Assembly: GCA_964399285.1 (NCBI GenBank)
Contig: CAYNQK010000004.1
Location: 7,651-71,650 of the forward strand
Length of the DNA stretch: 64,000 nt
Reading direction: 5' to 3'
From: an uncultured Spirochaetales bacterium
GTDB lineage: Bacteria > Spirochaetota > Spirochaetia > Treponematales > JBGSOB01
In this document: piece by piece, positions 4,988-8,164 of the stretch
Position numbering within the stretch: position 1 is the first letter of the stretch
Layout of the letters: each line of letters starts with the position of its first letter
Notes under the pieces: model-generated
Told to the model about the DNA's origin: nothing
The model's input: only the letters and a program-made list of their open reading frames with translations
The model's database searches: none
Program-made: the position numbers and the translations under genes

Positions 4988-5020
4988 AGGGCCGGCCATC
5001 GGAGCCGGCCCTCTTTTTTT
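4988..5020 (+). terminator. Rho-independent terminator of the ABC-2 operon
   Basis: 9-bp stem AGGGCCGGC / GCCGGCCCT with a 7-nt loop, followed by a T7 run. Confidence 0.6.
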
Positions 5021-7178
5021 ATTCGAGCATCGCGTTGAGGCGCGCGGCGATACCCGCCATCGTGTTATCGAAATCGCCCACGTCCCGTTTGGGAATCCTG
5101 AATCCGACGGCGCCCGGGTGGCCCCCGCCGTTCTCGATGCCGAGCCGGACGATTGCCTCGCGGAGGTCGAGATCCCCGAAGGATTGGCTCCGCCTCAGCC
5201 TGAACTGCACGAAGTCAGAATTGCCGGGGGCGTCGTAGTAGGCGACGAGCCCGAGGCGCCCGCTCTCCTCGGCGAAGCGGTCCACGGTCGCCCGAGAGAC
5301 GGCCGCCACCGTGTCGGAACCGTAGGCCGAGAAGATGCCGGCGGACTCGTCCTCGTCGAGGGCGACGTACCTGAGACCGCCCACGGTCCTAGCCTTGGAG
5401 GAGAGCAGCTCGTAGCAGTCCTTCTCGTGCTCGGTGAGCGAGGCGAGCGCCTCGTAGACCTGCTCCTTGCTCGAGAAATTGCCGCTTCCGCTCCGCGTCT
5501 TCTCCGCGAGGAGCCGCTCGAAGAGCGAGCTGAACCATGCGTAGAACCATTTTTCCCGCCTCGTCTTCAGGTACTTGCCCATGCGCGAGTCGGCGATGAT
5601 GCCGGAGAGGATGGAGAGGACGATGTTCCGCGTGAAGAGCTCCGCGATCTGGTACCGATCCATGAGGGCGCGGTCGCGGTACATCTTGTAGGCGAGGAGC
5701 CCCACGATCTCGCAGCTCGAGGAAGCGCCCATGACGAGGCGGTGCCCGGGGTCTCCCGCGTAGGTCGAATCGGACTCGAGGTGGTGGTCGATCTCGATCT
5801 TGAGGATGGACGGGTCGCGGAAAAGCCCTTCATAAGCGGGGCCGCGGTCGATCATCTCAGGCTTCGGGGTATCCACGATCACGATCGAGGAGTAGCCCGT
5901 CGGGGGAGGTCCGTCGGCGTCGATGACGTGGATGGAATTGTACTGGCAGATGTTGAGGAGGAAACGGCAGCTGTCCGGGACCTGCTTGCCGAGGGCGACC
6001 GCGGCTTTCTTGTTGAATTTGCTCGCGAGGAGGCCGAAGGAGACCATGGCCGACACGCAGTCCTCGTCGGGGAGCTTGTGCCCGAAGATGAGGAAGGAAT
6101 CGCGTTCGTCGAGGGCCTTGACGACGTTCGCGATGATCCTGTTCTTACGGGCGACCGTCGGGATTTCGCGCTTTACGAGATCGGTCTCGGAGGAGGGGGA
6201 GGAGACGCCGGCGGCGACGGCGCGGTCCCGCCCCGCTTCCTTGGCGGCGTAGAGCGCCTTGTCCGCGTTCGCCTTGAGCTCCTCCGTCCCGCCGGGCCCG
6301 AGCTGGGAGACGCCGACGCTGCAGCTCACCCTGAGCTCGGGGTGCTCGGGGAAGGAGAAGGAGCGGAGGGTATCGCAGAGGGACTCGCACCTCGCGAGGG
6401 CGTCCGCGATACCGGTCTCCGGGAAGAGGAAGCAGAATTCGTCGCCGCCGTAGCGTACGAGGATGTCGCTCTCGAGGAACACGGCGCGCATGGCGGCCGC
6501 CGCCCTGAGGATGACCTGGTCGCAGAATTCCGCCCCGTAGGACTTGTTGAGCTTCCCGAAGCGGTCGAGGTCGAACATCCCGAAGGAGAGCGGCTTCACT
6601 TCCCGTTTGGCGCGCGAGACGATCTCCTCCAGGGAGTCGTCGAGGTACCGCCTGTTGAATAGGCCGGTCGCCGGATCCGTGATGGCCCTCCGGCGCGCCT
6701 CGTCGCCGTACTGGACCATCTGTGAGAGGAAGGCGCTCGTCTTCATGAGTCGCTGGGCGGAGATGGCGAGCATGCGGTCGAGGATCGCGGAGGCCGTCTT
6801 CGGGCGTTCCTCGATGAGGCGGTCGAAGTCCCCGGTGTCGAGGACGAGGCAGGAGCAGTCGGCGGCGGCGCGGCAGGTCGCGGAGCGGGGGGCGTCGTCG
6901 ACGATCGCCATCTCCCCGAAGAATCCGCCCGCGGGAATCCTGGCGAGCTCGATCTCCTCGCCGCCCTCGGCCCTGATGGTGATGGTCACCGAGCCTGAAA
7001 CGATGACGTGCATTTCCTCGCCGCGATCGCCCTCGCGGAAGATGACCGCTCCAACCGAATAGGAGCGCTCCGTCATGGCGTCCGCGACCGCCTTGAGGCC
7101 ATCCCTTCCGAGCCCGGAGAATATCCCGAGCTTCCCGAGGACGGCGGTCCGGGACGGAGCGCGCTTCGCGGGGCTCAC
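5019..7178 (-). CDS. cNMP-binding / GGDEF diguanylate cyclase / DHH-DHHA1 phosphoesterase fusion protein
   Basis: cNMP cassette FFGEMAIVDDAPRSATCRA. GGDEF A-site RYGGDEFCFLFP. DHH motifs HKLPDEDCVS, VIVDT, EIDHH, IIADS, and DHHA1 motif GGGHPGAVGF. The GTG start overlaps the upstream stop (GTGA). Confidence 0.8.
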   Translation of the reverse strand: MSPAKRAPSRTAVLGKLGIFSGLGRDGLKAVADAMTERSYSVGAVIFREGDRGEEMHVIVSGSVTITIRAEGGEEIELARIPAGGFFGEMAIVDDAPRSATCRAAADCSCLVLDTGDFDRLIEERPKTASAILDRMLAISAQRLMKTSAFLSQMVQYGDEARRRAITDPATGLFNRRYLDDSLEEIVSRAKREVKPLSFGMFDLDRFGKLNKSYGAEFCDQVILRAAAAMRAVFLESDILVRYGGDEFCFLFPETGIADALARCESLCDTLRSFSFPEHPELRVSCSVGVSQLGPGGTEELKANADKALYAAKEAGRDRAVAAGVSSPSSETDLVKREIPTVARKNRIIANVVKALDERDSFLIFGHKLPDEDCVSAMVSFGLLASKFNKKAAVALGKQVPDSCRFLLNICQYNSIHVIDADGPPPTGYSSIVIVDTPKPEMIDRGPAYEGLFRDPSILKIEIDHHLESDSTYAGDPGHRLVMGASSSCEIVGLLAYKMYRDRALMDRYQIAELFTRNIVLSILSGIIADSRMGKYLKTRREKWFYAWFSSLFERLLAEKTRSGSGNFSSKEQVYEALASLTEHEKDCYELLSSKARTVGGLRYVALDEDESAGIFSAYGSDTVAAVSRATVDRFAEESGRLGLVAYYDAPGNSDFVQFRLRRSQSFGDLDLREAIVRLGIENGGGHPGAVGFRIPKRDVGDFDNTMAGIAARLNAMLE

Positions 7179-8164
7179 GGCGCGTCCTCCGGGAATACGA
7201 TGGCGTTTCCGCCCTTGGCCCTGCCGAGGAGGGGAAGCCCCGCCACCGCCTTGATGAGGTCCTCAGCGCTCCGGGCGTGCGCGGGATAGGCGGCGATACC
7301 GGAACTGACGGAGAGGCGGGCCGTGACGGAACCCACCGCGGGGGAGATGTCGAGGGAGGAGAGAGTATCGCGGAGCAGGAGAGCCGTGGCTTTAGCGGCG
7401 ATCGCGTCCTTGCCGGGGAGCATGGCGGCGAGCTCGTTCCCCATGTAGCGGACGGCGCTTCCCTCCTCGCCGAGGGCGCGTTCGAAGGCCGCGGCCATGA
7501 GGGCGAGGGCGGCGTCGCCGGCCTCGTGGCCGTACTGGTCGTTGATTTCCTTGAAGTTGTCAGGTTTCAGCATGAGGAGGGCGAAGGGCTTCCCGTCCGC
7601 CGGCAGCGAGGCGGGAAGGGTCTCCTCGAGGTAGGCCTTGTTCTTGAGCCCGGTGAGCTTGTCCGTATAGGCCTGCCGCCGCATCTCTCGGATCCAGGGG
7701 GAATTCTCCTTGATGAGGGCGTTGGCCTTGCGGGTCCGTTGGGAGGTCACGAGGAGGAAGGATTTCAGGATGCGGGCGGACATGGACGGCCGCGATTGGA
7801 GGGCGGTCTCGAGGTCCTGGCCTTCCGGAGGGAAAGCGATGATCTGCGTGCCGTCGCCGGCGACGGCGGTCGCGTTGCGCTCCCCGTGGTTCAGGAATTC
7901 GAGCTCGCCGAAGCTGTCTCCCTCGACGTACTCCGCGACGAGGGTCCGCTTCTCCTCGCCCACGGAGATGCTGACGGAGCCGGAGGCGACCACGAAGAGG
8001 CAGGACGCGCCGTCTCCCGGCTTGAATACGGTTTCGCCGGGGGCGTAGAACCTGATTTCAGTGTGCTCGGCGAGGTAGGAGAGCTCGGCCCGGTCGAAAG
8101 CCGAGAACAGGCTCGTCTTTCCGAGCGCGATCGCCACCTCATGGAGGCTTTTCGCCTTCATCAT
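7175..8164 (-). CDS. cNMP-binding protein with degenerate GGDEF domain
   Basis: cNMP cassette [19 protein letters not shown]. The GGDEF fold is recognisable ([28 protein letters not shown]). The A-site reads [12 protein letters not shown] and the first metal Asp is replaced (LKPDNFK). Confidence 0.75.
   Translation of the reverse strand: [329 protein letters not shown]

Follow-up and report, generated by a model that had tools for sequence, protein, structure and literature searches.

Two pairs of genes with the same layout lie in a stretch of 64,000 nucleotides from an uncultured Spirochaetales bacterium (GenBank assembly GCA_964399285.1, contig CAYNQK010000004.1, positions 7,651 to 71,650), hereafter called the window, which has a G+C content of 65%. 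In each pair the upstream gene (A1 or A2) encodes a protein with a fold of the cyclic nucleoside monophosphate (cNMP)-binding type followed by a GGDEF domain with altered catalytic motifs, and the downstream gene (B1 or B2) encodes a paralogous protein in which these motifs are kept. On the sequence evidence presented below, the A and B proteins most likely work as one two-part signalling enzyme. The features of both pairs, numbered from the first letter of the window, are as follows.

7175-8164, minus strand: A1, 329 residues, cNMP_binding and degenerate GGDEF domains, putative pseudo-cyclase (open reading frame and Pfam)
7823-8053, minus strand: cNMP domain of A1
7694-7708, minus strand: ENSPW, kink in the linker of A1
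7247-7672, minus strand: GGDEF domain of A1
7559-7567, minus strand: KPD of A1 at the DxD metal-binding motif, with Lys200 at the position of the first metal-binding Asp
7430-7444, minus strand: MGNEL of A1 at the GG(D/E)EF A-site (alignment to WspR and GcbC)
7184-7195, minus strand: codons ttcccGGAGGAc for the C-terminal FPED of A1, both protein motif and Shine-Dalgarno (SD) sequence of B1
7175-7178, minus strand: GTGA junction, GTG start of B1 overlapping TGA stop of A1
5019-7178, minus strand: B1, 719 residues, cNMP_binding, intact GGDEF, DHH and DHHA1 domains
6807-7067, minus strand: cNMP_binding domain of B1
6222-6686, minus strand: GGDEF domain of B1 (DLD at 6564-6572, GGDEF at 6435-6449)
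5640-6095, minus strand: DHH domain of B1 (PDEDC at 6057-6071, DHH at 5781-5789)
5061-5330, minus strand: DHHA1 domain of B1 (GGGH at 5118-5129)
24374-25351, plus strand: A2, 325 residues, cNMP-like domain at 24473-24709 (degenerate cassette at 24620-24664) and degenerate GGDEF domain
24863-25300, plus strand: GGDEF domain of A2 (KPD at 24956-24964, ASNQT at 25082-25096)
25348-25351, plus strand: GTGA junction, GTG start of B2 overlapping TGA stop of A2
25348-26379, plus strand: B2, 343 residues, cNMP_binding domain at 25444-25695 (canonical FGEM..RSAT) and GGDEF domain
25822-26343, plus strand: GGDEF domain of B2 (DLD at 25936-25944, SGDEF at 26089-26103)

The original prediction had placed these open reading frames exactly, with the same gene order and a 4-nt GTGA overlap at both junctions. 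All four proteins match the GGDEF domain (PF00990) above the gathering score, with E-values of 2.2e-28, 1.2e-16, 1.1e-31 and 1.2e-29 for A1, A2, B1 and B2, respectively, and in all of them the cNMP_binding domain (E 9.6e-16 in A1) precedes the GGDEF domain; in the Pfam search, DHH and DHHA1 were found in B1 only. The proposed paralogy agrees with phmmer scores of 158 bits for A1-A2 and 147 bits for B1-B2, against 48-110 bits for the A-B comparisons, and no other open reading frame resembling A1, B1, A2 or B2 was found in the window. The exact A1 sequence is also present on JGI metagenome contigs of up to 72 kb, and those A1 homologues that bear names belong to Rectinemataceae and other Spirochaetota.

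In HMMER alignments to WspR and GcbC, Lys200 of A1 falls on the first metal-binding Asp (IDVD becoming LKPD), and MGNEL aligns with the A-site GGEEF, within ARYGGEEFAMVL of a solved cyclase. An active cyclase is expected to carry GG(D/E)EF, with Ala or Ser tolerated at position 1, and an Asp at the first position of DxD. A2 has KPD and ASNQT, so that A1 and A2 alike carry Lys for the first Asp and Asn for the A-site Asp/Glu, and have lost the first Gly of the A-site. Residues D327 and E370 of PleD bind the catalytic metal and, going by these residue roles, both metal ligands are predicted to be lost in A1 and A2. The guanine-contacting Asn/Asp pair is kept in A1, and A2 keeps the Asp and has Val at the Asn position. 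B1 (DLD..N..D..RYGGDEF) and B2 (DLD..N..D..RLSGDEF) carry the DxD metal site, both guanine-contacting residues (Asn and Asp), an Arg ahead of the A-site and a G/S-GDEF A-site, as expected of an active diguanylate cyclase, and are, by motif, intact enzymes of predicted activity. RxxD five residues upstream of the A-site was found in none of the four proteins. Consequently, the earlier claims that the upstream members have lost the A-site and the first metal-binding Asp and have no RxxD, and that the downstream members keep GGDEF (B1) or SGDEF (B2), are borne out by alignment to known cyclases; intact catalytic residues, which would contradict them, were looked for in the upstream proteins and are absent, and the substitutions found in their place are conserved family signatures.

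Two other identities were considered for these proteins and rejected. In Hypr (cGAMP-forming) GGDEF domains a Ser replaces the guanine-specifying Asp, D344 of PleD, as stated in a section of PMC12943098; all four window proteins keep the Asp there (..GD), which rules out this type. An anti-phage Pycsar or CBASS module is likewise ruled out, since in PADLOC the cNMP domain matched models of Pycsar effectors only weakly (E 1e-10 to 2e-4), with no effector or cyclase domain.

The substituted motifs of A are shared throughout its family. The search with A1 returned 319 homologues at E <= 1e-10, of which 120 are listed, 43-96% identical to it, and KPD is present in 120/120 of those listed, in the pattern [LMVFI..]KPD. 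The motif MGNEL itself is found in 89 of the 124 aligned sequences (which include the four window proteins), and the rest of the A1 family has xGNE[LIF] or xGNAL. An alignment of 28 A1-family sequences (43-73% identical) contains 47 invariant columns, among them K200, P201, D202, N203, F204, K205, N208, D209, G212, H213, G216, D217, G242 and N243; no variation occurs in the A1 family at the two guanine-contacting residues (Asn and Asp), at the Lys or at the Arg that precedes the A-site. The A2 family (81 matches) has KPD together with [RK]SNET in most members, ASNQT being confined to close relatives. Since KPD and xGNEL or [RK]SNET are kept across hundreds of homologues, the A motifs are family signatures and not decay, and the 'dead' motifs appear from the alignments to be under purifying selection. 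Random decay or pseudogenisation of A is thus ruled out, the substituted positions being among the most conserved of the family. A profile search of the wider family gave 107 representatives of normal length among its best 150 matches, of which 103 have KPD; the A-site varies among them (xGNEx, xSNEx, [RKQW]GDEF, xGDVF), and because KPD is near-constant in spite of this variation, the Lys-for-Asp change is the hallmark of the A lineage.

On the B side, all 74 B1-type proteins have GGDEF (74/74), the one remaining sequence of the 75 in the alignment is B2, which has SGDEF, and DxD is present in all. The B2 family, by itself, never has GGDEF: 33 of its 49 full-length members have SGDEF and 14/49 have AGDEF, and the first Gly of this 'live' partner is thus systematically replaced. 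An RxxD I-site is found in 25/73 B1-type and 19/49 B2-type proteins and in none of the A members (0/80 for A1, 0/56 for A2), the absence from these 136 proteins ruling out a c-di-GMP (cyclic di-GMP) receptor of the PopA/PelD type for A.

The association between the two kinds of gene was surveyed from the A side. The A1-family alignment, run against one genome per species, gave 368 related stretches, of which the best 80 loci were examined, and the A2-family alignment, run against metagenomes, gave 88 matches, the best 80 of which contain 56 non-redundant A2-type loci with room downstream. A B1-type gene directly follows the A1-type gene on the same strand in 80/80 genome loci, A being always upstream, and a B2-type gene follows the A2-type gene in 56/56 metagenome loci; the genes following A1 score 230-680 bits to the B1 core and about 80-130 bits to A1. 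The synteny check called for by the original prediction thus finds the dead/live pair adjacent in every relative examined that has enough flanking DNA, and gene tables inspected for individual relatives show the same arrangement. Among the 80 A1-type loci every one with a named taxon is a spirochaete, including one isolate, Brucepastera parasyntrophica RmG11, and the unit is common in spirochaetes, occurring in hundreds of genomes and metagenome contigs. In one spirochaete metagenome-assembled genome (GCA_026398615.1) there are three pairs, one of A1 type with a fused DHH (L033) and two of A2 type (L086 and L088), which raises the question of how cross-pairing of paralogous units is avoided.

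The junctions are tight in both families. If B is taken to begin at whichever start codon comes first in its frame close to the A stop, a rule on which these classes depend, the 80 A1-type junctions comprise 31 overlaps of 4 nt (the commonest type), 11 of 1 nt, 27 gaps of 0-14 nt and nine other short overlaps; only two are longer (68 and 177 nt), the gap being at most 14 nt in 78/80. Among A2-type junctions, 49/56 overlap by exactly 4 nt. The 4-nt overlap is the commonest overlap in bacterial operons, and for this reason the two found in the window prove little, whereas the pairing pattern goes beyond chance because it is kept in relatives that are only 40-55% identical. In addition, 67/80 A1-type loci have a GGAGG-like, that is SD-like, sequence no more than 17 nt from the B start, where it is encoded by the near-invariant C-terminal ...LFPED of the A1 family (ttcccGGAGGAc). 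This stretch, in the window and in L005-L084, is under both protein and ribosome-binding constraint. The two window junctions also share 11 identical bases, GCGCCGTGAGC, at 7173-7183 on the minus strand and 25343-25353 on the plus strand (..Ala-Pro-stop overlapping Val/Met-Ser..), despite the paralogues being only about 35% identical and their C-terminal tails otherwise different; this identity may reflect chance at a G+C content of 65%, selection or gene conversion.

The history of the pairs was addressed with a neighbour-joining tree of 60 sequences (the A and B proteins of 14 random loci per pair family and the four window proteins; 322 columns), a run which gave a numeric warning for saturated distances. 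Four monophyletic families were recovered, the split (A1+A2)|(B1+B2) appearing in 78/100 bootstraps and the A1+B1 and A1+B2 groupings in 0/100, and the mean identities are 31% for A1-A2, 36% for B1-B2 and 23-26% for A-B. From the tree split and these identities it follows that an ancestral A-B pair arose first and was then duplicated as a unit, in line with the whole-pair duplication that had been proposed for the window. Moreover, searching 1.84 billion cluster representatives with a profile built from the two A families retrieved single-chain A-B fusions, P0322 (650 residues) and P0324 (681 residues), and a truncated third, P0325. Both P0322 and P0324 contain two cNMP and two GGDEF stretches; their contigs are unrelated and have different neighbouring genes, and on each the fusion is predicted as one gene. 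Their N-terminal half has KPD and RGNEF and scores as A-type, and their C-terminal half has DLD or DMD, GGDEF and FGEM..RSAT and scores as B-type, an A-then-B order that is also that of the split pairs. Because such natural single-chain fusions exist, they provide Rosetta-stone evidence that A and B act together, from which we infer their physical association. A further candidate, P0329, was discounted since its sequence is garbled after the A part, most likely by a frameshifted assembly.

The sensor domains of the two partners differ in their phosphate-binding cassettes. B1 and B2 both have the canonical FGEMA....PRSAT, which corresponds to the pattern G-E-x...R-[ST]-A of functional cAMP or cGMP sensors and predicts binding of such a ligand; FGEM..RSA is found in 64/75 sequences of the alignment of B1-type proteins and B2, with a conservative variant in the remainder. 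The cassette of A1, FGELE....ERNAT, keeps the Glu and the Arg and has R-N-A in place of R-[ST]-A throughout the family. In A2 the cassette, VGDFDFAIGRKVADS, has neither Glu nor Arg, although the fold is still recognised by Pfam, and the A2-family consensus GDFDFA....DA is consistently degenerate and without the Arg; because of this degenerate cassette A2 probably does not sense a cyclic nucleotide. The original prediction had given each protein its own cNMP-binding domain, which is correct for the fold in all four and doubtful, as regards ligand binding, for A2.

The AlphaFold2 model of A1 (predicted local distance difference test score, pLDDT, 93) comprises a CRP-like beta-barrel, then a long helix at residues 126-153 that is separated by a kink (at ENSPW, specific to the family) from another helix at 156-166, and a complete GGDEF fold, which can be overlaid on GGDEF domains of known structure (3ign, for example, with TMt 0.87). 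The two helices, a putative dimerisation element, lead into the GGDEF domain. In a Foldseek search A1 matched the stalked cyclases SiaD, WspR and DgcB as well as CRP-family dimers, and no solved full-length cNMP-GGDEF protein matched it over both domains. For B1 (pLDDT 81) the least confident part of the model is the linker at residues 147-178; such weak confidence would be expected of a stalk needing a partner and proves nothing.

The C-terminal half of B1 adds a second putative activity. Pfam detects DHH at 6e-08 and DHHA1 at 25.8 bits, just under the 25.9-bit cutoff, and the motifs PDxDC (PDEDC in B1), DTPKP, DHH, gDS and GGGH reach a conservation of 90% or more across 115 full-length homologues. 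Among solved structures its best sequence matches are the catalytic domain of GdpP (E 3e-7) and TM1595 (E 8e-6), and the best DHH-type Foldseek matches of the B1 model are TM1595, Borrelia DhhP, S. aureus Pde2/NrnA, GdpP, Rv2837c and a Bacteroides nanoRNase. From these matches the module is predicted to belong to the NrnA/DhhP/GdpP class, which cleaves linear or cyclic dinucleotides. B1 is not a member of the GdpP family proper, having a cNMP domain and an intact GGDEF, no PAS match in Pfam and no NCBIfam equivalog at cutoff. In the 80 pair-1 loci, DHH-DHHA1 is fused to B in 31, encoded by the next gene in 17 and not found in 32; nine of the latter have at most 64 nt of contig after B, and the other 23 have 1.6-5.1 kb.

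In pair 2 the B gene is followed by an unrelated one:

26376-28070, plus strand: DUF4140/DUF4139 protein (TIGR02231, 'MuiA family'; Pfam and NCBIfam), signal-peptide-like N-terminus, ATGA overlap with the B2 stop

Besides the window, one close relative (A2 61% identical) has this gene after its A2-B2 pair, and no counterpart was found in 56 other A2-type loci, where the third gene varies or is missing. The protein is thereby ruled out as a conserved output of pair 2, and the gene is a lineage-specific passenger of the operon and not a core part. The view that the outputs of the two pairs have diverged holds in so far as DHH/DHHA1 is fused in B1 and recurrent in the pair-1 family, but the module is optional there and the DUF4139 gene is limited to the two genomes just mentioned. 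Other third genes recur elsewhere: in L085, L104, L111 and L146 a protein of about 285 residues is encoded at most 2 nt from the B stop or with a 4-nt overlap (L085 has a DUF4349 Pfam match, and the L104 and L111 sequences are closely alike), and a family of about 400 residues lies 14-60 nt downstream in L117, L126, L133, L141, L142, L148 and L164. Neither is the DUF4139 protein of the window.

Taking these observations together, we hypothesize, with a probability of roughly 55%, that each pair forms one signalling unit for the synthesis of c-di-GMP, made of a pseudo-cyclase and a cyclase. B would be an ordinary diguanylate cyclase controlled by a cyclic nucleotide, and A a paralogue of B kept as a pseudo-enzyme. 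The overlapping stop and start codons, with an SD sequence in the conserved C-terminus of A, would couple translation of B to that of A, so that both proteins would be made together. They may then associate through the CRP-like C-helix and the stalk, the dead GGDEF domain of A partnering or occluding that of B, in such a way that the productive B-B encounters required for c-di-GMP synthesis would depend on the ligand state of the sensor domains; in an alternative arrangement, (A:B)2, the two B domains would meet only in the right ligand state. The ligand of B would be cAMP or cGMP, A1 possibly senses a (guanine) nucleotide and A2 probably nothing. Where DHH-DHHA1 is present, the pair-1 unit would probably also destroy a linear or cyclic dinucleotide and could thus be a make-and-break module.

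Several points weigh against this reading. The A-B complex is deduced from sequence; many CRP-fold domains bind ligands other than cAMP or cGMP; and the catalytic deadness of A is read from the established residue roles of PleD and WspR. The bootstrap support for the key split is moderate (78%) and comes from a simple neighbour-joining tree, and adjacency was scored only in the direction from A genes to B genes, among the loci with the best scores. In addition, four contexts were sampled in the wider KPD family. P0363 (RGDEF) lies in an A-B-DHH trio (L174), P0354 (KGDVF) is followed 5 nt on by a B-type N-terminus, and the contig of P0397 is too short to judge its context. The last, P0386 (L173:4001-4984), which alone among the four combines KPD with an intact GGDEF motif, has no B-type partner, the next gene being a convergent serpin. 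This orphan, which may mark a state before or after pairing, counts against an 'obligate' heteromer as originally predicted: pairing is the rule in the wider family, but not without exception.

Other functions for A were weighed against the same body of evidence. It may work independently of B, as a sensor or effector that responds to a nucleotide (GTP, c-di-GMP or a cNMP) and has other targets, being merely co-regulated with B and forming no complex with it. The nucleotide pocket of A is indeed conserved, the P0386 orphan exists, and a section of PMC12943098 describes degenerate GGDEF domains that serve as sensors of GTP or receptors of c-di-GMP. Nevertheless, we regard such a role as unlikely, since the A members counted above have no RxxD I-site, A is without an output domain, and co-regulation alone leaves unexplained the fixed order, the overlapping or abutting stop and start codons in about 130 loci and the repeated fusion. 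A different target, the DHH-DHHA1 phosphodiesterase, would be switched on by a dead GGDEF domain reporting GTP, as happens with the EAL domain of Caulobacter PdeA (CC3396). An A-B-DHH trio, fused or split, in 48/80 pair-1 loci and in L174 fits this proposal, and the GGDEF-DHH-DHHA1 arrangement exists in GdpP, as a section of PMC12943098 describes; yet the pair-2 family and many pair-1 loci keep A without DHH, the A-B fusions have no DHH, and the next gene is convergent in L172 and has no similarity to DHH in L171, which makes the DHH module distinctly improbable as the main target of A. That A has remained an active cyclase despite its unusual motif, the pair being two tandem enzymes, is very improbable indeed: the A-site variants SGDEF and AGDEF have been reported to be active and some members of the wider family keep xGDEF, but in A1 and A2 both metal-binding carboxylates and the first A-site Gly are replaced, and the first Asp is Lys in 103/107 representatives.

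A more unusual chemistry was also considered, in which the A:B heterodimer is itself catalytic with a single competent site. A would hold a guanine nucleotide metal-free, with Lys200 replacing Mg2+, and the 3'-OH of this nucleotide would attack the GTP in B; a linear product (pppGpG or a related one) would be released, or c-di-GMP formed only after the intermediate rebinds, and DHH-DHHA1 would process the linear product. In A1, N208, D217, K205 and R239 are invariant and only the metal ligands are replaced, a phosphodiesterase class that cleaves linear dinucleotides (TmPDE, NrnA/Pde2, DhhP) recurs with the pair, and both the 1:1 coupling and the existence of A-B fusions agree with a heterodimer of fixed composition. 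On the other side, we know of no precedent for a dedicated pppGpG-forming GGDEF heterodimer, the guanine-contacting Asn is lost in many A2-family members (LVD/LCD) in which pairing is kept, DHH is absent from about a quarter of the pair-1 loci with at least 1.6 kb downstream and from all pair-2 loci, and the phosphate-contacting Lys and Arg of the C-terminal helix have become Arg and Gly in A1 (as mapped from knowledge of PleD). We therefore consider it improbable that the heterodimer is catalytic in this way, and quite improbable that A and B form an asymmetric GGDEF heterodimer in which one site is live and the other metal-free, and whose product is a linear 5'-triphosphorylated dinucleotide (pppGpG or a mixed one, as set by A) that the co-evolving DHH-DHHA1 module trims or recycles; if true, this would be a new nucleotide-signal chemistry arising from a pseudo-enzyme and an enzyme.

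The component parts of the unit are all of known kinds, and the pseudo-cyclase/cyclase unit that we favour can be set beside several described systems. XC_0249 of Xanthomonas campestris, a cGMP-stimulated diguanylate cyclase (PMC3770947), shares its cNMP-GGDEF architecture with B2 and with the 330 N-terminal residues of B1, and has a canonical cassette and A-site; however, it is paired with a guanylate cyclase gene, XC_0250, has neither a dead paralogue nor DHH, and belongs to a different phylum. GdpP/YybT likewise places GGDEF directly upstream of DHH-DHHA1 (an architecture noted in a section of PMC12943098, together with degenerate GGDEF domains as GTP sensors) and gives the best sequence match to the DHH part of B1 among solved structures (E 3e-7), although by fold TmPDE, DhhP and NrnA/Pde2 match that part equally well or better. 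In contrast to B1, with its intact GGDEF and cNMP sensor, GdpP has a degenerate GGDEF and a transmembrane and PAS sensor; in the spirochaete system the degenerate GGDEF is on a separate chain, A1. In PdeA (CC3396) of Caulobacter a dead GGDEF with a preserved nucleotide pocket also stands beside an active c-di-GMP enzyme, but that partner is an EAL domain in the same chain, whereas the partner of A is an active GGDEF, usually in a separate coupled chain, and GTP binding by A is putative. RcbA/RcbB of Vibrio vulnificus (PMC12282931), a bicistronic non-catalytic partner and TPR-GGDEF cyclase, is also a conserved two-gene operon in which the non-catalytic partner, sharing a sensor-type domain, binds and controls the cyclase; there the interaction is between TPR domains and the family is unrelated to A/B. 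None of XC_0249, GdpP, the degenerate-GGDEF sensors and RcbA/RcbB combines dead and live GGDEF paralogues as an obligate pair.

Heterodimeric class III cyclases, such as the C1/C2 domains of mammalian adenylate cyclase and the alpha and beta subunits of soluble guanylate cyclase, have one live and one degenerate site. These, too, join a pseudo-subunit paralogue to a catalytic subunit, in a fold related to GGDEF, and keep the dead site as a regulatory or structural partner; the difference is that their active site lies at the subunit interface, so one heterodimer suffices, whereas a GGDEF cyclase needs two GTP-loaded domains. With only one live GGDEF domain, therefore, c-di-GMP cannot be made in the standard way.

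Full-text searches of open-access papers and bioRxiv turned up no account of paired dead and live cNMP-GGDEF proteins, nor of the KPD signature, which within that scope falls short of proving absence. Databases name both A and B proteins 'diguanylate cyclase', a name that, judged by the residue states, is almost certainly wrong for the A family and inflates the counts of active cyclases in spirochaete genomes. Networks of c-di-GMP are usually read gene by gene, with 'degenerate' GGDEF proteins set aside as receptors or relics; in both A families surveyed here, every member examined is locked to an intact cyclase through the order of the genes, coupled translation and, in some cases, fusion. 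If the complex forms, it would be, to our knowledge, the first widespread pseudo-cyclase/cyclase heteromer in c-di-GMP signalling, would parallel the logic of live and dead subunits in eukaryotic adenylate and guanylate cyclases, and would link the sensing of cAMP or cGMP, the synthesis of c-di-GMP and a dinucleotide phosphodiesterase in one operon.

A few features around the pairs complete the description of the window. One element lies past the B1 stop:

4988-5012: GC-rich hairpin separating B1 from the DUF4340 gene, which is convergent with it; distance to the B1 stop 7 nt, terminator-like on the plus strand (consensus scan only)

Upstream of A1, on the same strand and after a gap of 199 nt, a 1038-residue protein without Pfam or NCBIfam match is encoded at 8364-11480 (minus strand); a promoter scan, which is uninformative in a spirochaete, gave no sigma-70-like site upstream of A1. 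Near pair 2, a 444-residue protein without Pfam match is encoded at 21628-22962 (minus strand). An 831-residue protein at 40033-42528 (plus strand), about 14 kb from pair 2, carries a PilZ domain at its C-terminus (E 4e-10), matches nothing else in Pfam and is a candidate c-di-GMP receptor. Right after the pair-2 operon, on the opposite strand (28122-35590, minus strand), lies a cluster encoding a two-component system and a tripartite efflux system, namely a sigma-54-dependent response regulator, a histidine kinase, an outer-membrane efflux protein, a MacB-like permease and an HlyD-like adaptor.

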